Shown: positions 9,204 through 19,384, numbered from the stretch's first letter. The stretch: DNA of 64,000 nucleotides from an uncultured bacterium (GCA_902800055.1 CADCCW010000016.1:27816-91815), one strand, 5' to 3'. The notes: a model not told the origin generated them from the letters alone. Numbers and translations: made by a program.

Positions 9204-10889
9204 GTGAGCGACATCAAGGAATGCATCAGGAAGCTTGAGAAGGCCGTCCTGGAGGACGGCAAGGTAGACCGCGCGGAGGCGGCGATACTGCTCTCCTACG
9301 CGTCGTCACGCGCCGGCGAAAGCGCCGAGATGGCGGAGTTCGTCAAGGCGCTGGAGGACGTCCTCGAGGACGGCGTGGTGACGCCGGAGGAGTCCATCCG
9401 CATCGCCGCCCACCTCAAGTGGCTGGCGCGCGAGGCGGAGAGCGACGAGCCCGAGACCACGTTCCTCGGCCGTCTCTTCAAGCTGAAGCGCAACCACACC
9501 ACCGTGCGCACCGAGGTCGTCGCTGGCATCACCACCTTCATGACGATGGCGTACATCCTCGCCGTCAACCCCAGCCTGCTGTCGACCGCCGGCATCCCGC
9601 GCGGCGGCGTGTTCATGGCGACCGCAGTTGCCGCGGTGGTTGGCACGCTCCTCATGGCGTTCATGTCCAACTATCCGTTCGTGCTCGCTCCTGGGATGGG
9701 CCTCAACGCGTTCCTCACCTTCGGCGTCGTCTTCGGCATGGGCTACAGCTGGCAGTTCGCGCTCCTGGCGGTGTTCGTGGAGGGACTGTTGTTCCTCGCG
9801 CTTTCGCTTACCCCCGTGCGCGAGTCGATCTTCAACTCGATTCCGTTCTCGCTCAAGAAGGCGGTTGCGGCCGGCATCGGCCTCTTCATCTGCTTCATCG
9901 CGATGCAGACGGCCAACCTCATCGTCGACAACCAGGCGACGCTCGTCGGCCTCCAGCACTTCGCGAAGGGCGACTTCAACGCGCAGGACGTCGCCGCGAT
10001 CCTCGCCGTCGCCGGCACCGTGGTGACCGCGGTGCTGCTGGTGTGGAAGGTGCGGGGAGCGATCCTCTTCGGCATCTTCGCCACCTGGCTCCTCGGCATG
10101 GCCGCGCAGGCGACCGGCATCTACGTGCCCGACCCCGCCCTCAAGTGCTTCTCGACCTATCCGTCGTTCACAATGAACGACATGGCCGGCGTCTTCCGGG
10201 AATTCGGCCAGACCCTCGGCGCGCTCTTCTCGCCCGAGGCCTGGGTCCACACGGTCAAGCAGGGCGACGCGGCGGTCGTGGTCGGCAGCGGCTGGGCGCT
10301 CGTGAGGGGGTTCGACTTCCTGGTCGTCATGTCGGCGTTCTTCTTCGTAGACCTCTTCGACACCCTCGGCACGCTGATCGGCGTCTCGATGAAGGGCGGC
10401 TTCCTCACCAAGGAGGGCAAGCTGCCGCGCATCTCCGGCGCGCTCTGCGCGGACGCGATCGCGACCTCCGTCGGCGCGGTGCTCGGCACCTCGACGACCA
10501 CGACCTACGTCGAGTCGGCCTCGGGCGTGATGGCCGGCGGCAGGACGGGCCTCACCGGCGTCACCTCCGCCGCGCTCTTCGCGCTTGCGATCCTCTTCGC
10601 GCCGATCTTCCTCGCCGTCCCGTCCTTCGCCACGGCGCCCGCGCTGATCATCGTCGGCTTCATGATGCTCTCCAGCGCGGCGGACATCGACTGGAGCGAC
10701 GCCTCCGAGGCGGTGCCGGCTTTCCTCGCGATCGCCGTCATGCCGTTCTCCTACTCGATCTCCGACGGCATCATGGCCGGCGTCATCGCCTACACCCTCA
10801 TCAACCTCCTCGCCGGCAAGACTAAGAAGATCCACTGGATCATGTACGTCCTCACGGCGCTCTTCGTCGCCAAGTACGCGCTGATGTGA
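9204..10889 (+). CDS. NCS2 (AzgA/PbuG-like) purine permease with an extra N-terminal soluble domain of about 85 aa
   Basis: TEVVAGITTFMTMAYILAVNP, APGMGLNAF, DLFDTLGT, TTYVESASG. Confidence 0.9.
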   Translation: MSDIKECIRKLEKAVLEDGKVDRAEAAILLSYASSRAGESAEMAEFVKALEDVLEDGVVTPEESIRIAAHLKWLAREAESDEPETTFLGRLFKLKRNHTTVRTEVVAGITTFMTMAYILAVNPSLLSTAGIPRGGVFMATAVAAVVGTLLMAFMSNYPFVLAPGMGLNAFLTFGVVFGMGYSWQFALLAVFVEGLLFLALSLTPVRESIFNSIPFSLKKAVAAGIGLFICFIAMQTANLIVDNQATLVGLQHFAKGDFNAQDVAAILAVAGTVVTAVLLVWKVRGAILFGIFATWLLGMAAQATGIYVPDPALKCFSTYPSFTMNDMAGVFREFGQTLGALFSPEAWVHTVKQGDAAVVVGSGWALVRGFDFLVVMSAFFFVDLFDTLGTLIGVSMKGGFLTKEGKLPRISGALCADAIATSVGAVLGTSTTTTYVESASGVMAGGRTGLTGVTSAALFALAILFAPIFLAVPSFATAPALIIVGFMMLSSAADIDWSDASEAVPAFLAIAVMPFSYSISDGIMAGVIAYTLINLLAGKTKKIHWIMYVLTALFVAKYALM

Positions 10890-10895
10890 TCCTCC

Positions 10896-10925
10896 GCGGC
10901 TTCGGGCTGGGGCGCTCGCCCCGCC
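10896..10925. repeat. REP-like palindromic repeat, type L, copy 1
   Basis: gcggcttcgggctggggcgctcgccccgcc; near-identical copy at 46540-46569. Confidence 0.65.
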
Positions 10926-11071
10926 GAACGCTCGGCCTCCTAGCGTGCCTTGCTCGGGATTCTCGACACTGACCGCAATGCGCTTCCGTTCCGAACGCGC
11001 TTAGGTCTCGAATCACGTCGTCGGGCCGCCGCCCCGCCCTCCGCCGCCCCTTGCGCCTCCGCGGCAGAATT

Positions 11072-11148
11072 TGGTATAATACGAGCCAATGAAACTGCGA
11101 ACTGGCATAACTGTCGCTATTTTGCAGGGGGGGGGGCAAACCTCTTAG
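11072..11148 (+). promoter_or_regulatory. Extended -10 promoter and leaderless uORF (11089-11148) containing a G10 tract
   Basis: TGGTATAAT at 11072-11080; ATG 11089 gives MKLRTGITVAILQGGGQTS*; G10 at 11127-11136. Confidence 0.65.
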
Positions 11149-11197
11149 AAAACTTCCCCCGTCGTTCGCATACTCAAAATCCAACAGGAGGTGCCAA

Positions 11198-12619
11198 ATG
11201 AACGGGGTGAAGAAACTCGCGTGTGGTTTCGTTTTGTCTGCCGCGGTCGCGCTCTGCGCGGCAAGCGCCAGTGCTACAACTTGGACTTATTCCGGCGGCA
11301 CAATCACAGACGGTGACTGGACGCTGAACTGCACCTATACCGTAGGACAGTCGTCGATAACCATCGGCGCGGTCGCTACCACTGCCGCCAGCGGGATTCT
11401 CGATCTGCGCGAGATGTCCGTCACTGACGGAACGACGGCCGCGTCGATTACGCGAATTGGCTTCAACGCGAATTGGGACAACGGCGTCGCCATCAAGGCT
11501 CTTTACGCCGACTGCGCGGCAAGTCTGCCGCGCCTCATGCAAAATACCACGCTTGAAACTGTCGTTGTGGCCAACCCGCAGCTGACCTCAATTCCTGGAT
11601 ACGTTTTCTGGGGTTGCTCCAAACTTACTTCTGACATCGCGGGTATTGTGACGCCGGAGGCGACCTCCATAGGACAGAATGCGTTCAATGGCAGTGGCGT
11701 CACCGGCAAGCTAACCCTTACGAACGTCACGACCATGGCCTCAGGTTCATTTCAAAACACGAAGATCGTCGATGTTGAAATCGTCAGCGACACGCTCACT
11801 GCAATCGGCGGCGCATTTCTTCAATGCACCGAATTGACGAACGCGACCATCACCTGCAAAAACCTCACGGAGCTCTCCGGTACTTTCGGCTATTGCGGAG
11901 CCAAGCTCAAGACCGTATTGCTCAATTGCCCGAAGTTGGCGACGATTGGCGCTGACACCTTCAAAAACGACAGCCTTTCGGTGGATGTTTCTTATGTCTG
12001 CCCGCCAAGTGTCATGTCAATCGGTAACTATGCCTTTTCTGGGACATCCGTCACAGGGATACTCGTCTTAACTAATCTCACTTCCATCGGCACCAGCGCG
12101 TTTCATTCGTCGGGTCTTCAGGAGATTGAAATCGCCGGCCCGCTTGAAACAATACAGGGGTTTTACTATAACAGGGGGCTTACCAACGCAACTTTCAACT
12201 GCCCCAACGCGACGATTATTGCGGCGCAGTCGTTCCAGTATAGTAGCGCACTAAAATCCTTTACCATCAAATGCCCGGCACTAACGTCAATCGGGGCCAA
12301 TTCATTCGGCAACATCGGTGCGCCGATGACTCTGTCTATCATGAATCAGCCGTGGAAATCCGCCAATACGGATTATACGGCGACGATTCTTGACGGGTTT
12401 CTTGTCCGCCAAGGCGCGGTTTCATCGGCATCATACTCCGTTATCTACGCCGACAAGAGGGAGTGGAGCGGCTATGCACTGGCGTTTACTGACGCGGAGA
12501 AAGTATACAAGCCCGAAAAGGCATACGGTACTTATGCCTCCGCTGGTGACGTGCGCAAGGCGTTCTTCGTCAATCCGATATGGGCCAAGACCGCCGGACT
12601 ATCTGTCCACTTCTTCTGA
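11198..12619 (+). CDS. Secreted BspA-like leucine-rich-repeat protein
   Basis: Signal peptide MNGVKKLACG...ASA; repeated SIGxxAF units; ends AGLSVHFF*. Confidence 0.8.
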   Translation: MNGVKKLACGFVLSAAVALCAASASATTWTYSGGTITDGDWTLNCTYTVGQSSITIGAVATTAASGILDLREMSVTDGTTAASITRIGFNANWDNGVAIKALYADCAASLPRLMQNTTLETVVVANPQLTSIPGYVFWGCSKLTSDIAGIVTPEATSIGQNAFNGSGVTGKLTLTNVTTMASGSFQNTKIVDVEIVSDTLTAIGGAFLQCTELTNATITCKNLTELSGTFGYCGAKLKTVLLNCPKLATIGADTFKNDSLSVDVSYVCPPSVMSIGNYAFSGTSVTGILVLTNLTSIGTSAFHSSGLQEIEIAGPLETIQGFYYNRGLTNATFNCPNATIIAAQSFQYSSALKSFTIKCPALTSIGANSFGNIGAPMTLSIMNQPWKSANTDYTATILDGFLVRQGAVSSASYSVIYADKREWSGYALAFTDAEKVYKPEKAYGTYASAGDVRKAFFVNPIWAKTAGLSVHFF

Positions 12620-12746
12620 TCTAACGCGGCAGTTTGCGCGGCAGTTTGAAGTGTCGCGCTACTTCGCCTTGACTTGGCGGCAGACGCGGATGGCCTTGTA
12701 GTCTGTGCTTTTGCCGGCGCGGGTGTAGACGGCGACGAAGTAGTTG

Positions 12747-12785
12747 CCGCGACGAGACCGAACCCCGCCTCCCCGCCGAGCCGCG
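12747..12785. repeat. Short dispersed repeat, type R, copy 1
   Basis: ccgcgacgagaccgaac-cccgcctccccgccgagccgcg; matches 51772-51810. Confidence 0.65.
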
Positions 12786-12840
12786 CCCCTGCGGCAGGCC
12801 GACTTGCCGCCGGCGGGCGCAATATGGTAAAATACCGAGC

Positions 12841-13701
12841 ATGAGAACGAGAACCGCAGTTTCCGTCGCCCTTGCACCTGCCGTGGCGCTTGCCGCATTT
12901 GCGCTTTCCGCTGCCGAGCCAGGGTATACTACGCTCATCTCGCACCGCGGCGAATCGCACGACGCGCCAGAGAATACCCTGCCGGCGTACCGGACGGCGG
13001 TCGAGGGCGGCTTCGGGTTCGAGTGCGACGTCTACCTCTCGAAGGACGGACGCGTCTTCACCTTCCACGACTCCACGCTTAAGCGCACCACCGCCGGCGC
13101 GAACACCAAGGCCTGCGGCGAGGTTCCGTGGGCGGAGATCGAGAAGCTCGACGTCGGGTCTTGGGGGAAGTGGAAGGGGTCGAAGTTCGCGGGGACGCGC
13201 CCGGCGCTGCTGGAGGAGGTGCTCGCGCTCGCGCGCGACGGGCGCGAGATCTACGTCGAGGTGAAGCCGGGGCCGGAGATCGTGCCCTACATCAAGAAGG
13301 TCTTCGCTGCGCAGAGGAACGCCACGCCGAAGAACGTGCTCTTCATCTCCTTCAACGCGGAGACTTGCCGGGCGCTGAAGGAAGCGATGCCGGAGTACCG
13401 CGTCTACTGGCTCTCCGTCGCGATGCGCCGGTCCGGGGGCAAGGAGCGTCCGGTGACGGCGGAGGAGGTGGTGGAGACGCTGAAGGCGACCGGGGCGGAC
13501 GGGCTCGACATCCAGTTCGTGCGCGAGGCGGTCACCGCCGACTTCGTCCGCAAGGTCAACGCGGCGGGGTTCTCGGTCCATGTCTGGACGGTCGACGACC
13601 TCTCCGATGCAGTCGAGGCGTTCAAGCGCGGCGTGGCGACAGTGACCACCAACCGCGCGAAGCATCTGCTCGACCTCTACCGCAATCCGCCTCGCCCTTG
13701 A
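12841..13701 (+). CDS. Glycerophosphodiester phosphodiesterase family protein, probably leaderless
   Basis: SHRG, APENT, ECDV, FHD, VWTVD, TTNR; TGGTAAAAT ends 7 nt before the ATG. Confidence 0.9.
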   Translation: MRTRTAVSVALAPAVALAAFALSAAEPGYTTLISHRGESHDAPENTLPAYRTAVEGGFGFECDVYLSKDGRVFTFHDSTLKRTTAGANTKACGEVPWAEIEKLDVGSWGKWKGSKFAGTRPALLEEVLALARDGREIYVEVKPGPEIVPYIKKVFAAQRNATPKNVLFISFNAETCRALKEAMPEYRVYWLSVAMRRSGGKERPVTAEEVVETLKATGADGLDIQFVREAVTADFVRKVNAAGFSVHVWTVDDLSDAVEAFKRGVATVTTNRAKHLLDLYRNPPRP

Positions 13702-13744
13702 CCCTGAGTCAAAAGGGGCAGCCATGCGCCTCCGCTATCGCGTC

Positions 13745-13903
13745 GGAAGTGGTTCAGTGTCCAATAACCAGTAACCAGTGTCCAGCAACCAGCAACCAAC
13801 AACCAGTAAAGCGGAAGAACCATCCTTATTCCACTGTTCGCTGAACACTGGCTGCTGATTGCTGAACCACTTCCAGCTGGCTGCTGATCACTGAATTACT
13901 TCC
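13745..13903. repeat. Heptamer tandem repeats inside a perfect 13-bp inverted repeat
   Basis: ggaagtggttcag (13745-13757) pairs with ctgaaccacttcc (13862-13874); units agtgtcc/aataacc/agtaacc/agcaacc; second imperfect arm at 13889-13903. Confidence 0.8.
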
Positions 13904-13934
13904 AACGCCACGCGTTGGTCCCCGCCTCCCCGCC

Positions 13935-14033
13935 CTCCGCCGCGCCGCCGTCACCGGACAATGTAGATGAACCCTGTATATGTCTGAAACCACTCGTAAC
14001 AACCAATGTCCGGAGCGTTGCCAAACACGCGCG
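13935..14033. repeat. 99-bp identical direct repeat, copy 1 (C-terminal cassette RVFGNAPDIGCYEWFQTYTGFIYIVR* on the minus strand)
   Basis: Base-for-base identical to 16419-16517. Confidence 0.95.
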
Positions 14034-15406
14034 AGCGCACCCGCGTCGCGGCAAGGGCTTTTCTTCTCCAGCGTATAGTCGCCATTTGCGGCATCCGTAA
14101 ACTGCGGGTCATAATCGCCGACAAGACAGCCATTCACGCCGTTGACAATGTGCGTCGTCGGGGTCGCCCCGGTGTCGATGGACGAAAAGTCGTAGGTCGT
14201 GCCGCCATCTTCGAAATTCGCCTCAAGGCAGTTCGCCACAAGCGACCAATTCGGCACCGACAAATGGGATGTTTTCCACGAAGTAGCGCCAAGCATGCCG
14301 TAATTGGCGTAGAAGACGCAGTTCGTGACGCCAATGGTTCCCGAATGCACTCCGATTGCGCCTCCGTTGTCCTGATTGGTTCCTTCTACGGTGATAGTAT
14401 TGTTTGCAAAGGTGCAGTTCTCGACCGATACTGCCGCGCCAGAACTGAACAGACGGACGGCTCCGCCATAGATTGTCTTTGTCTTCGGCGTCGTCAAGTA
14501 ATTGCCAGAGAACAGGCAGTTGCGGATATGCCCCGTCATGGCTGCGGCTATCGAAATCGCCCCTCCACCAATCGAAGATGTCCGCGATATCAGGTTGTCG
14601 GCTATGTCGCAATTGATGTAGTTGTTCGTGAAAATGCAGTTGTCGATGGCTATTGTCCCTTCGTGGCCTAAGTTGATCGCGCCGCCAAAAGCACCTGACG
14701 TGTGATTGCCAGCAAAGGTGCAATTTTTGCATGAAAGATTGCCGACGCCTTCAATGACTCCGCCGCCATTGAGGGAGTTGCAATTATTGAAGTTGCCCGC
14801 AAAGACGCAGTTCGTGGCGGCAAACTCGTAGAGAAGTCGCGCTGCACCGGAGCCGCCAGCAGATGAATTTTCAAAGCGGCAGTCCGTGGCCCAGGCAGAC
14901 CACCCGGGCCTTGTGTAAGCTTGATTGACCGCGAACTGGCCGTAGATGGCGGCCCTTTGCCGCATACCTGTGAAAACGCAATTGGAAATGGCGTTGAAGT
15001 CGCACGAAACATAGATGGCTATGTTCGAAAAGGTTATGTTCTCGAAGACATTCGTAACCCCGCCCCGAATATTGTAATCGGCGCTGTCGCTGTCGGGCAT
15101 GAAGACAACCCTGGCGGGATCTGCCGGGGAGCCGTCGGCCTTGACACCGCGGAAGGTGATATGTGGATGATTGCCCTGCGAATTGCTTCGAGGAAAGACA
15201 TAGGGAGCGTCGCTTTCCTCGAACTCATAAACATCGTCATCGTGAAAATAATAAGCAGTGTTGTTGTTCCATGTCGTCTTGAATGAGGTGAACTCGGCGG
15301 AGTCCGGTGTAAAGCGAAAGATGCGATGGCCATCGACGGAGGCGTTCGCCACACTTGCCGCCAAAGCCAAAACAAAACCAAACGCGAGTTTTCTCACCCC
15401 GTTCAT
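13951..15406 (-). pseudogene. Secreted parallel beta-helix (Pmp/choice-of-anchor-Q-like) protein with a frameshifted C-terminal cassette
   Basis: MNGVRKLAFG signal peptide; GGAI/FxxN repeats; DPQFTDAANGDYTLEKKSPCRDAG, then the natural tail lies in the +1 frame (stop 13951); the zero frame reads on to 13826. Confidence 0.7.
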
Positions 15407-15544
15407 ATTGCACCTCCGGTTATTGTTTGAGTATGCTGCGGAAGAGGCGAGAAAACTATGAAGTCTACCCCACCCCCTTGGCAGAATATTGCTACTTTCG
15501 CAGAACATGCCTGAATGATAGCAAATTCTCGGCCGCTTTGTCAA
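15407..15544 (-). promoter_or_regulatory. Sigma70-type promoter and leaderless in-frame leader with a G5-T-G4 tract
   Basis: TTGACA 15544-15539, 18-bp spacer, TATCAT 15520-15515, ATG 15508 (MFCESSNILPRGWG...) in frame with 15406. Confidence 0.75.
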
Positions 15545-15589
15545 GTCAGGCGACACCAACTACACCACACCACGCACAGGTGATTCAAC

Positions 15590-16360
15590 TCAGCGGGCGC
15601 CCTCGAAAGACAGTCCCGGCTGCGGATTCGGACGCGGGAGGTCGGCAAATATCGTCCGCTCGCCTTGCATCGGCTGGACGAAGCACTTGTAGCCCTCCGC
15701 CTTCGCCCGGTAGTAGTCCGCCGAATGCCAGCCGTGGAAATCGGCGCTCACGCGACGGCGACGCTCCATCGCTCCATCGCCGTACTGGCAGGCGTAGAGT
15801 CTGATGGAGTCCAGCACCTTGTCATAGACGGAAGTTATGTCGACATACACATCCGGAGAGAAGTTCTTCGACTGGTACGTCTGCTCCATAAAGTAGATTT
15901 CCGGCTTGATGTCGGCGAGGAACACGGCCCTGATGGCGGCGGCTCCGGCCATGACGTGGTCGGTGTGGATGTCCACCGGCCAGTGGGCGATCACGGCGCG
16001 CGGGCGCAGCTTCTTGAGAATGGCGGCCAGCCTCTCGCACGACTCGCGAGAGGCGTATGCCTCGCCGTCGACTTCGTCCAGCCAGTGGAGCGTCGCGCCA
16101 ATCGACGCGCAGACCGCCTCCTCTTCCTTGGTACGCGTCGCCTTTGTCCAGCCGCTCTTGAACTTCTCCTCTCCGCAGCCGCGCTCGCCATGGGTAAAGT
16201 CGACCACATGGACTTCGTATTTGCCGCGGGCAAGATGGCAGAATCCGAGGCAGGCGATCAGGTCGTCGGGATGCGCGGGAACGATCACCACGCGTTCGAG
16301 CTCCGCCGCAGAGCAAACCGCTCCGGTCAGCGCCAACAATGCAAACAGAACTGTTTTCAT
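15590..16360 (-). CDS. PIG-L/LmbE-family deacetylase, probably leaderless
   Basis: AHPDD, THGERG, DIHTDH; TGATATAAT ends 7 nt before the ATG. Confidence 0.9.
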   Translation of the reverse strand: MKTVLFALLALTGAVCSAAELERVVIVPAHPDDLIACLGFCHLARGKYEVHVVDFTHGERGCGEEKFKSGWTKATRTKEEEAVCASIGATLHWLDEVDGEAYASRESCERLAAILKKLRPRAVIAHWPVDIHTDHVMAGAAAIRAVFLADIKPEIYFMEQTYQSKNFSPDVYVDITSVYDKVLDSIRLYACQYGDGAMERRRRVSADFHGWHSADYYRAKAEGYKCFVQPMQGERTIFADLPRPNPQPGLSFEGAR

Positions 16361-16418
16361 GCCGCGTATTATATCACAAAATCACGAATGCCCGCGAGCA
16401 GCCTGCGTTGCCGCGCCA

Positions 16419-16517
16419 CTCCGCCGCGCCGCCGTCACCGGACAATGTAGATGAACCCTGTATATGTCTGAAACCACTCGTAACAACCAATGTCCGGAGC
16501 GTTGCCAAACACGCGCG
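16419..16517. repeat. 99-bp identical direct repeat, copy 2
   Basis: Identical to 13935-14033. Confidence 0.95.
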
Positions 16518-17872
16518 TCGCCGTTCGCCGCGTCGGTAAAATTCGGGTCGTAGTCGCCGACAAGACAGCCGTTCACGCCGTTGATGATGTGCGTTGTCGG
16601 AGTCGCCCCGGTGTCAATGGTCGAGAAGTCGTAGGTCGTGCCGCCATATTCAAAGTTGGATTCCAGGCAGCTGCCGATTGTTGTCCAGTCCGAGACTTTA
16701 AGATTTGCCGCCGCCGGCATCATCTCCGCACGTGCACGATTGGCGTGGAAAATGCAGTTCGTGATGCCGAGCGATGCGGCCTTCCAGCCCCAGATCGCCC
16801 CACCGCCTTCGGCGTTCTGCTTGGGGTTGCTTGCGACATTCTCGACAAATGTGCAGTTTTCCACGGAAACAACAGCACTGGCATTGCGCACCATAATCGC
16901 ACCGCCGCCAAAACCATTGCCATCGGTCGTACGCGTACAGCTGTTGCCGACAAATAAGCAATTCTGGACAGTCCCCGTCGCCGCGCCGTAGATGGCAATC
17001 GCCCCGCCGCCACCTTCGTGCCGATCCGTATAGACGACATCTACAGCGTTGTTCGAAAACACGCATCGGTCGAGCATGAACTTCCCCGAAACATTGAGGT
17101 TGAGTGCGCCCGCGCCCTGCCCATCGGGGACGACATTGTCCGCGAAGACGCAGTTGTAGCAGGAAAGGTTGTTGATATTTGCGGCAACCGTGCCTGCCGT
17201 GAAGCGGGTATCCGTGTTGGTGCAGCACATGAAGACGCAGTTCGTCGCGGCAAACGAAAGCCAGTCGGTGATGACGCGACCAATTCCAGCAATGCCCTCA
17301 AAACGGCAATCGGTCGCGGAGATAGTCCCAACCGGATTGTTCTGGGTCCATGCTCTTTGGTAAAAGACCCGGCCATTGTTGTTCGTCACTCCCGTGAACA
17401 CGCAATTGCGGAAGGCAAAAGGACGATCACCATGGGCCGAGAGCACCACGTTGCTGAACGTGATGTTCGCGAAGGTGTTCGTGTAGTTCTGGAACGAAAG
17501 GCCGTTCTGCGTTCCCTCGGCGGGGATGAAGACAACCTTTTCAGGATCGGCGGGAGAGCCGTCAGCCTTCACGCCAACGAACGAGAGGTCGTGCTTTCCC
17601 CAGCCAGAATTGAAGCTTATGCCGCTTGTGAGGACATACGGTTCGTCGCTTTCCTCAAACTCGAAGATGTCGCCCGTCTGGTAGCCATTGACCATCGACC
17701 AGTAAAGGGTGTCAAGGAAGTTTTCCTTGAAGTTGTCCGGCGTGAATCGGAAATGCCGATGCCCCTGTTCGTCCGTCGAATGGACGGATGGAAATGTAGC
17801 GGCGTGTGCACCGCCAGCGGCAAAAGCCGCAAGACATACAAGACCACACGCGAGTTTTCTCACCCCGTTCAT
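16435..17872 (-). pseudogene. Secreted parallel beta-helix protein (paralog of 13951-15406) with a frameshifted C-terminal cassette
   Basis: MNGVRKLACG; shares GVKADGSPADP and GGTTYDFSxIDTGATPTTHI; DAANGD joins the cassette out of frame; the zero frame reads to 16382. Confidence 0.7.
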
Positions 17873-18009
17873 ATTGCTTCTCCTGTTGGAATTTGAGTGT
17901 GCAAATGAAGAGGCGAGAAAACTGTTAAGTCTACCCCTCCCCCTAGCAGAATATTGCTACTTTCGCAAAACATGCTTGTATGATAGCAAATCCTCGGCCG
18001 CTTTGTCAA
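17869..18009 (-). promoter_or_regulatory. Sigma70-type promoter and leaderless uORF (17973-17869) with a G5-A-G4 tract
   Basis: TTGACA 18009-18004, TATCAT 17985-17980, ATG 17973; the uORF stop overlaps the main start (ATGA). Confidence 0.75.
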
Positions 18010-18110
18010 GCCCCGGCTGGTCTGGAATCCGCGGCAAAACTGCCGCGGTAGGCACCTGATCCGCACCATGGGTCTCAAAAACCCCCTCTGCAAAAATTGA
18101 AAATACCCCC

Positions 18111-18402
18111 TTGCGCGGAGCGGGGCATTTTTGATATACTACGCGCAATTTCTTCGAAAGAAGGGTCGCGATACGGGCAGGTAAATCCCGTCGCGTCGTG
18201 ACCGCCAAGCAGTTCGCTCGCGGTCGTGATGTCGGCCGCGAGCCTTGTTTTGGGGGGATGGCTGGGGCGAAACCCAGCTGCGAACGAAGCGCCGCAAAGG
18301 GCTTCTCGCGCCAACGCCAAGAGTCCGCCGGAAGGCGGCGGGCGCACGCGGAGATCGCAGCCGTCGAACCCCAGGAAACGAAAACAACAGAAAGGCAAAA
18401 GC
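18111..18402 (+). promoter_or_regulatory. S10 operon promoter and structured 5' leader of about 255 nt
   Basis: TTGCGC 18111, TATACT 18135; hairpins at 18216-18243, 18261-18278 and 18325-18338. Confidence 0.6.
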
Positions 18403-18711
18403 ATGCAGCAGCAGAGAGTACGCATCCGGCTCCAGGCATACGACCATCGTGTGCTTGACCAGGCCGTCGGTGGCATCATCGACACGGCCCGGAGCACCGG
18501 TGCGCAGGTGGTGGGGCCGATCCCGCTGCCGACGCGGGTCGAGCGCTTCACGGTGAACCGCTCGCCGAACGTCGACAAGAAGTCCATGGACCAGTTCGAG
18601 ATGAGGACGCACAAGCGCCTCCTCGACATCGTCAACCCGACGGCGCAGACGATCGACGAGCTCAAGAAGCTCAACCTTCCGGCCGGCGTAGACATCACCA
18701 TCAAGGTCTGA
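18403..18711 (+). CDS. rpsJ: 30S ribosomal protein S10
   Basis: [25 protein letters not shown]. Confidence 0.97.
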
Positions 18712-18721
18712 GGAGGGTGTC

Positions 18722-19384
18722 ATGGAAGGCTTGATTGGCAAGAAGGTCGGAATGACCCAGGTCTACGACGCCGACGGCGTCAGGACCTGCGTGACGGTCA
18801 TCGAAGTGGGTCCCTGCCCGGTGGTCCAGCTCAAGACCCCGGAGAAGGACGGCTACTCGGCGGCGCAGGTGGGCTTTGGCCCGCAGAAGCCGCAGCGCCT
18901 GGCGAAGGCGGAGCGCACGCGCTTCGAGAAGGCCGGCGTCGGGGCGCTCAAGGTGCTCAAGGAGTTCGCGCTCGACGAGGGCGAGACCCTGGAGGTCGGC
19001 CAGGCGGTGACTGTGGCCAACTTCGAGGGCGTCAAGTACGTGGACGTGACGGGCATGACCAAGGGCAAGGGCTTCGCGGGCGTCCTCAAGAAGTGGGGCT
19101 TCGCCGGCGGCAACATGACCCACGGCGGCCACTCGAAGCGCAGGACCGGCGGCCTCGCGGCGCGCGACCTGCCCGGCTGGATCGAGAAGGGCAAGAAGAT
19201 GCCCGGCGACATGGGCGACGTGAGCCGCAAGGCCATGAACCTCGAGGTCGTTGCGATCCGCCCCGAGGACAACGCGCTGCTCGTGAAGGGGTCGATTCCC
19301 GGCGCCCGGAACGGCATCGTGTTCGTGCGCAAGTCCCTCAAGAACAACGTGGTCGCGGCCAAGGCCGCGAAAGGGGGGAAGTAA
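18722..19384 (+). CDS. rplC: 50S ribosomal protein L3
   Basis: GKKVGMTQ, DGYSAAQVG, KGKGFAG, KKMPG. Confidence 0.97.
   Translation: MEGLIGKKVGMTQVYDADGVRTCVTVIEVGPCPVVQLKTPEKDGYSAAQVGFGPQKPQRLAKAERTRFEKAGVGALKVLKEFALDEGETLEVGQAVTVANFEGVKYVDVTGMTKGKGFAGVLKKWGFAGGNMTHGGHSKRRTGGLAARDLPGWIEKGKKMPGDMGDVSRKAMNLEVVAIRPEDNALLVKGSIPGARNGIVFVRKSLKNNVVAAKAAKGGK

Follow-up and report, generated by a model that had tools for sequence, protein, structure and literature searches.

A candidate phase-variable leader peptide module upstream of secreted-protein genes in an uncultured cattle-gut bacterium

To our knowledge, almost all detailed work on phase variation concerns pathogens. The repeats responsible usually lie in promoters or inside genes, and we know of one well-studied case, pil1, in which the repeat sits inside a leader peptide, where it acts on transcription. 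Here, we analyzed a 64,000-nucleotide (nt) stretch of DNA (the window; GCA_902800055.1, CADCCW010000016.1:27816-91815) from an uncultured bacterium, in which three genes, g1, g2 and g3, are each preceded by a homologous leader with a G-rich tract inside a putative short upstream open reading frame (uORF). An initial reading of this sequence (the original prediction) proposed that slippage in the tract switches expression of these genes through the frame of the uORF. Our analysis makes it fairly probable that the leaders encode a phase-variable leader peptide whose translation unmasks the start codon of the main gene.

The closest described system is pil1 of Streptococcus gallolyticus, in which GCAGA repeats in a leader peptide control a surface structure; one frame yields a short peptide that ends before a hairpin (low expression), whereas the other frames yield long peptides that open the hairpin (high expression) (Danne et al. 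2014, PMC3894217). Judged from their sequence, the present leaders are similar in that a putative uORF with initiation signals holds the repeat, and one frame stops before a predicted hairpin while the others would end in or beyond it. They differ in that the repeat is a mononucleotide G run rather than a pentanucleotide, and in that the uORF is apparently leaderless, has one fusion frame and belongs to a module found before ~10 genes per genome. Moreover, the hairpin of pil1 is a terminator, whereas here none was predicted in the three leaders and the hairpin is predicted to bury the main start codon. Control here would therefore be translational: the logic of pil1 appears to act at the level of translation, by way of a start codon that is predicted to be buried, and to include an apparently leaderless uORF and the fusion frame as a third state.

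Variable repeats in front of genes have also been described in three other species. In Moraxella catarrhalis, a poly-G tract of 6-12 lies between the promoter and the start codon of the surface adhesin gene uspA1, and its length varies by strain and changes expression; the effect is reported to be a graded high/low one at the mRNA level, with no uORF or three-frame logic described in the excerpts of that report (PMC7302503). In Helicobacter pylori, a variable homopolymeric G-repeat in the tlpB leader sets downstream translation and is read by the small RNA (sRNA) RepG, a system that, as far as the excerpted text goes, requires this trans-acting sRNA and has no uORF (PMC8295292). The heptamer repeat of Haemophilus influenzae hmw1A forms one arm of a transcribed hairpin in the 5′ untranslated region, which has a G-rich partner arm and is cut by RNase III, so that expression scales with repeat number through RNA processing (PMC12721329). 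In the present leaders, by contrast, tract length has little influence on the predicted folds, and it is the reading frame to which the signals point. Long-range helices that hide a downstream initiation site and are melted by an upstream ribosome are known from the MS2 coat gene and the genes downstream of it and from the erm and cat leader peptides; there, melting is set off by upstream translation itself or by drug-induced stalling, not by a heritable change in repeat length. A search of the literature on phase variation in combination with uORFs, leader peptides, leaderless translation or translational coupling (supplements outside its scope) returned no closer case, and a full-text search found no paper that links Kiritimatiell* with phase variation. 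In this lineage of uncultured gut commensals, the module is present in multiple copies. If our reading is true, they represent a compact design for heritable stochastic control of translation, the ON/OFF states of secreted-protein genes become predictable from metagenomes, and there is reason to take the homopolymer length in leaders of metagenome-assembled genomes for a signal, not for assembly noise.

Leader anatomy, related leaders and the upstream start

The upstream regions of g1, g2 and g3 align with a mean column identity of 75%, and the three genes share the N-terminus MNGV(K/R)KLA. The tracts, the promoters and an upstream ATG 6-8 nt past the −10 element were all found where the original prediction had placed them (Table 1). 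The distance from the upstream to the main ATG is 109 nt in g1, 102 nt in g2 and 101 nt in g3, which corresponds to the three frame states claimed at the outset: a premature stop, fusion in frame with the main gene and a stop that overlaps the main start (ATGA), respectively. Removing one G from the g1 tract (G9) gives an open leader ending in ...GGGKPLRKLPPSFAYSKSNRRCQ-MNGV, exactly as anticipated. The g1 promoter combines a perfect TATAAT and its TG with a weak −35 element (3/6 matches), which is why it is missing from the promoter-scan list; it aligns with the g2 and g3 promoters as homologous. We also considered the G run as part of the spacer of a second promoter (TTCTGC ... TAtAGT, judged by eye) and dropped this idea because the hexamers are poor, the spacers vary from 13 to 20 nt across copies and the upstream promoter is near-consensus. 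A scan of window positions 10000-19000 against Rfam 15 (E up to 1) gave 0 matches.

Table 1. Window coordinates of the putative regulatory features and main open reading frames (ORFs) of g1, g2 and g3 (SD, Shine-Dalgarno sequence)
Feature	Position	Strand	Description
g1 promoter	11051-11080	+	TTGCGC (11051-11056), 18-nt spacer, TG (11072-11073), TATAAT (11075-11080)
g1 uORF, G10 state	11089-11148	+	ATG 8 nt past −10; 19 codons; stop TAG 11146-11148
g1 tract G10	11127-11136	+	within uORF
g1 helix 5′ arm	11153-11171	+	predicted; starts 5 nt after frame-1 stop
g1 SD AGGAGG	11186-11191	+	
g1 helix 3′ arm	11191-11212	+	predicted; includes main ATG 11198-11200
g1 main ORF	11198-12619	+	473 amino acids; MNGVKKLA signal-peptide-like N-terminus, BspA-type leucine-rich repeats
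g2 promoter	15515-15544	−	TTGACA, 18 nt, TG, TATCAT; 11/12 matches
g2 uORF	15404-15508	−	ATG 15508-15506, 6 nt past −10; in frame with main ATG (fusion)
g2 interrupted tract G5TG4	15468-15477	−	
g2 helix arms	5′ 15433-15457, 3′ 15387-15413	−	predicted; masking weak in g2
g2 main ORF	13826-15406	−	beta-helix-like secreted protein; main ATG 15406-15404
g3 promoter	17980-18009	−	TTGACA, 18 nt, TG, TATCAT; 11/12 matches
g3 uORF	17869-17973	−	ATG 17973-17971, 6 nt past −10; 34 codons; stop TGA 17871-17869, ATGA overlap with main ATG
g3 interrupted tract G5AG4	17934-17943	−	frame-1 stops TAG (17933-17931) and TAA (17927-17925) directly after
g3 helix 5′ arm	17901-17923	−	predicted, 23 base pairs (bp)
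g3 helix 3′ arm	17853-17877	−	predicted; covers main ATG (17872-17870) and codons 2-7
g3 main ORF	16382-17872	−	496 amino acids, beta-helix-like secreted protein; main ATG 17872-17870

The three leaders are part of a larger family with a biased frame distribution, for which the original prediction had proposed a genome-wide search. A profile search of the host genome (G000) revealed 10 leader copies, and a covariance model made from nine of these ten, run on the genomes of the genus, recovered 34 copies, which are spread over 9 of the 117 genomes (10 in G000, 7 in G019, 6 each in G031 and G107 and 1 each in five genomes). The same model found no leader in 124 genomes of other genera (151 genomes of the order were searched). 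The covariance model detects homologues only. The sequences of all 34 leaders were inspected, and they fall into three types. Type B (11 copies, including g1-g3) comprises leaders of ~100 nt before genes starting MNGV; type A (16 copies) comprises mostly ~190-nt leaders with an added hairpin of 18-27 bp before genes starting MKKL; and type C (7 copies) has no G run and precedes genes starting MNMV. The genes downstream of the leaders in G000 encode proteins of 620 to >2900 residues.

A few copies deserve mention in their own right. In C24b (G000:C24:36777-36910), the leader is kept from the ATTCTGCC block onward, as far as the main ATG, and has neither promoter nor uORF start; it lies directly past the stop of a preceding large paralogue and is therefore probably co-transcribed with it. 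The gene after the second G10 leader of the genome (G000:C3:98800-98985) is open for 61 codons only, 174 nt from the contig end, and may be frameshifted, a remnant or in another tract-dependent frame. Type A leaders such as L057 (G000:C7:72891-73092) carry an insertion of ~100 nt in which imperfect repeats resembling GTCCAA(T/A), together with their complement, form the hairpin; downstream of it lies a conserved ATGAAATGAAAAGGAG, a two-codon mini-ORF that shares bases with another in-frame ATG, located 18 nt ahead of the main start. A mosaic leader, L068 (G031:C111), is 93% identical to the g1-type leader L063 (G107:C14) on the 5′ side of the tract, and on the 3′ side it is type A and only 42-45% identical to the g1-type. 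Because L068 joins the two kinds of half at this point, leader halves seem to have been exchanged at the G run.

Throughout the family, the start of the uORF is conserved. An ATG (19 leaders) or GTG (11 leaders) lies in frame 6-8 nt past TGnTAnnnT in 30 of the 34 leaders (the −10 element of G025, unlike those of the rest, was read by eye), so that the uORF would start no more than 1-2 nt from the predicted 5′ end of the transcript. In three more distant species (G090, G112 and G114), the promoter lies further upstream, and AAGGAG and 6 nt precede the ATG of the uORF instead. The start reads in frame into a conserved ATT codon before the tract in every subfamily, over a distance of 9-12 codons, and the sole start in another frame that leads as far as the tract is one in C3. 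The replacement of a leaderless start by an SD-led ATG in three relatives is hard to explain unless the uORF is translated, and the upstream start, which the original prediction had described for the three genes and which is retained in frame, suggests the same.

Frame bias of the stops and variability of the G run

Next, we consider what the three frames encounter between the tract and the main ATG. Among the 11 type B leaders, frame 1 contains 22 stops, which occupy 5 distinct sites, while frames 0 and 2 contain 0; frame 2 ends at the TGA of ATGA, and frame 0 continues into the gene. In dinucleotide shuffles, frames 0 and 2 were both free of stops in 9-29% of trials per leader. Post-tract stops in one frame only agree with the frame logic of the original prediction, which was drawn from three genes. 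In the long leaders, the two other frames are open for 108-119 nt in 11 of 14 cases, and all three frames then stop 4-42 nt before the main ATG; across type A, none of the three frames continues as far as the main ATG (15 of 16 checked; G019:C65 has no main ATG in view). In type C, frame 2 (ATGA) is never interrupted, frame 0 has gained stops in two copies, and all five uORFs end on ATGA.

The state of the tract is related to the frame it sets. Of leaders with a uORF start and an interrupted, short or absent tract, 17 of 19 are in a read-through frame, compared with 7 of 13 for pure tracts, the remaining 6 of which lead to an early stop. The idea that interrupted tracts are locked states is thus borne out as a tendency, not as an absolute: g3 (G5AG4) and its G019 counterpart (G5TGG) have identical flanks and differ in tract length and frame, so that "locked" is relative.

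A pure run of G9-G15 occurs at the homologous place in 13 of the 34 leaders, even though the 2.29-Mb genome contains only 10 G or C runs of at least 9, two of them inside leaders. Taking about 7-8 units or more as slip-prone, the G10 of g1 qualifies. Window positions 10900-12400 are present in gut metagenome runs of cattle and goats that stem from 10 studies (24 runs, all as assembled contigs), and four runs were compared over positions 10900-18100. A contig of 2849 nt (X1) carries G11 at g1 with 0 other differences from the window, and two short contigs (X4, 204 nt; X6, 195 nt) carry G6, again with 0 other differences. By frame, G11 leads to ATGA, G6 to the fusion and the G10 of the window to the early stop. 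Similarly, among four type A copies that share 93-100% identity in the flanks, the tract has a different length in each (G10, G11, G12 and G13), whereas four copies with a short interrupted G6TGG are all alike. Length polymorphism with constant flanks was thus seen both between samples and between paralogues, and the faster change of long pure runs than of their surroundings, which short runs do not show, is a signature of slippage. Tracts invariant among relatives would have spoken against the original prediction; the tract proved hypervariable. A scan of metagenome contigs with the g1 tract flanks gave 10 stretches, all of them unrelated chance matches without a G run, and no further alleles. 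Contig breaks at the g2 tract (X2, X4) and an X2 contig beginning at 11127 were set aside and not used as evidence because repeats alone can break contigs.

Predicted masking of the main start and competing explanations

Minimum free energy folds, with the first 24 nt of the main ORF included, predict in 9 of 11 type B leaders that the segment just past the frame-1 stops pairs with the region of the main AUG, in a helix of 18 pairs in g1, 21 in g2 and 23 in g3. The predicted accessibility of the start is 0.17, compared with 0.31-0.39 when the upstream segment is shuffled; for g1, the values are 0.17 and a shuffled mean of 0.37. Only 1 of 100 shuffles was as masked for g1, g3 and G019:C15, and 5-16 of 100 were for six other type B leaders. 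Across 17 short leaders, 75.3% of cells pair, compared with 38.7-48.6% with slid partners. The codons of MNGV(K/R)K are conserved at the nucleotide level, which the predicted helix would also explain. Changing the tract from G5 to G16 in silico left the predicted accessibility of start and SD almost unchanged in four leaders, which argues that length acts through frame, not through RNA folding.

Other candidate elements were less convincing. The GCAYACTC block, considered as an anti-SD, pairs with the SD in the g1 and g2 folds and not generally (SD accessibility, 0.35-0.60). A terminator scan of window positions 10900-18150 placed no terminator-like site inside the three leaders, and the long leader L040 likewise has none. 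The type A hairpin also looks doubtful as an intrinsic terminator, since the scan did not call one and UUUU follows the stem in some copies only; these long leaders have only a short U stretch after the 18-27-bp hairpin. By analogy with pil1, this long hairpin, which lies within the read-through frames, may take over the masking role.

Taken together, the leader would work as a portable 5′ module, one per gene, that begins with a strong sigma-70-type promoter with an extended −10, continues with a short uORF (the leader peptide) that has a hypermutable G run ~10 codons in, and ends with stops in one frame directly past the run and an 18-23-nt segment that would pair with the start codon of the main gene and the codons next to it. 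Replication slippage at the G run would set the frame of the uORF. In frame 1, the ribosome would halt just before the pairing segment, leaving the helix intact and the main start buried (OFF or low). In frame 2, it would cross the segment, melt the helix and end on ATGA, where the same or a fresh ribosome would start the main ORF (ON). In frame 0, the ribosome would enter the gene directly and add ~34 N-terminal residues (ON, possibly with a different fate). Interrupted or short runs would be slower-switching states kept in a read-through frame. The transcription start, the translation of the uORF, the identity of the ON frame and the size of the effect are parts of the scheme that we infer. 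Only tentatively do we go further and propose that a leaderless mini-ORF, a G run and a start-hiding helix form a portable three-state translational switch in front of about ten large secreted-protein genes per genome in this rumen lineage, that it gives cells individual combinations of surface or secreted proteins without an invertase or methylase, and that the G run is a junction at which leader halves are exchanged.

Several observations weigh against this mechanism. Masking is not predicted in g2 (accessibility, 0.31 vs 0.33 shuffled; 35 of 100 shuffles as low) or G025 (91 of 100 shuffles as low), and the same shuffle test predicted no start masking in type A and type C leaders; one mechanism therefore does not cover the whole family. 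Covariation is modest (5 pairs changed on both sides), slid controls reach its score of 0.126 as well, and g3 supplied the structure for this test, which favors that structure. For the family as a whole, folding gives only a weak consensus hairpin at the tract (−2.75 kcal/mol, 6 pairs). The stop and frame counts overstate independence because the leaders are kin, and the helix arm is stop-free partly by force, being complementary to coding sequence. GTG, which is poor for leaderless initiation in E. coli, accounts for 11 of the 30 leaderless-type starts, and two copies (C24a and C24b) retain the leader without a usable uORF. Finally, tract lengths were taken from assembled contigs, which drop minor variants.

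These points have to be set against what other explanations can account for. One that we judge unlikely is the absence of any switch, in which a duplicated cassette of promoter, leader and signal peptide has spread by recombination among secreted-protein genes and mutation of a G-rich leader has produced the G runs as a side effect with no bearing on regulation. The mosaic leader of G031, with its g1-type 5′ half and type A 3′ half, would be expected in that case, as would type C leaders that work without a tract, the two copies without a uORF and a main gene with a strong SD of its own. However, pure G9-G15 runs recur at the homologous position in 13 of the 34 leaders, rare as such runs are genome-wide (10 of at least 9 in 2.29 Mb). 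The frame bias of the stops, the read-through state of the locked copies and the predicted start-masking helix are not expected under neutrality. Also improbable, in our view, is an RNA-only switch in which the G run serves as the 5′ arm of a hairpin in the leader, or as an anti-sequestor that competes for the C/U-rich arm, and its length tunes folding, stability or RNase processing without translation of the uORF. Every leader does have a C-rich segment ~15 nt downstream with which the G-rich segment can pair, alignment-based folds put a small consensus hairpin at the tract, and hmw1A provides a precedent for a simple sequence repeat arm in a 5′ untranslated hairpin cut by RNase III, at least in the excerpted account (PMC12721329). 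Yet that consensus hairpin is the weak one mentioned above, and the near-constant predicted accessibility from G5 to G16 speaks against tuning by length; the conserved start codon, its replacement by SD and ATG in three relatives and the one-frame stops would all be left unexplained.

Classical in-gene phase variation, with the upstream ATG as the true start, the G run as coding sequence and only the in-frame state productive, would fit g2, G019:C15, G025, G031:C60 and G114, all of which are in frame with the main ORF. We regard it as very improbable as a general account, since the main ATG retains a conserved SD at 6-8 nt, the ATGA frame, not fusion, is the fixed state of g3 and of all five type C leaders that possess a uORF, and fusion is impossible in type A, where all frames stop before the main ATG (15 of 16 checked). 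There is even less to be said for the G run as the target of a trans-acting C/U-rich sRNA or as a site of RNA polymerase or ribosome slippage, through which one genotype would give mixed frames. Runs of G10-G15 are long enough for such slippage. A variable G-repeat in an mRNA leader that is read by an sRNA has a precedent in RepG and tlpB of H. pylori, as excerpted (PMC8295292), but the Rfam scan of the region was empty (no search was aimed at a candidate sRNA), and frame-specific stops would again have no explanation.

The host genome and surroundings of the three genes

The host is an uncultured cattle-gut bacterium, and the products of g1-g3 are secreted proteins. Its metagenome-assembled genome comprises 2.29 Mb in 61 contigs with 64% G+C, and the window lies within contig C16. 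The original prediction described the leader as shared by genes with unrelated folds: the g1 protein matches LRR_5 of the BspA type (Pfam, E 9.6e-29), and g2 and g3 give weak beta-helix/DUF5123 matches at or below Pfam cut-offs. The flanking genes are ordinary and encode a permease, a GDPD phosphodiesterase and a PIG-L deacetylase.

The 3′ ends of g2 and g3, including their C-terminal tails, are almost identical (window positions 13826-14034 and 16382-16517), and the same terminator-like hairpin lies near both ends (14006-14028 and 16490-16512). Short contigs of X2 and X6 connect position 16517 to 14034, which could reflect either a rearrangement between the repeats or an assembly artefact of the repeat. 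The basic tail of g2 and g3 is odd and suggests that the true C-terminus may be in another frame.

Some further runs and promoter-like sequences in G000 were observed, most of them outside the window. Two paralogous genes have coding-strand runs just past their signal-peptide-like N-termini (C8, G000:C2:103160-103167; C10, G000:C27:5651-5660), which resemble classical in-gene contingency tracts. A G9 run (G000:C21:49478-49486) separates a promoter-like TTGCGC...TATGATATACT from the 16S rRNA gene, and a promoter-like sequence very similar to the one in front of this 16S rRNA gene is found at window positions 18105-18140.

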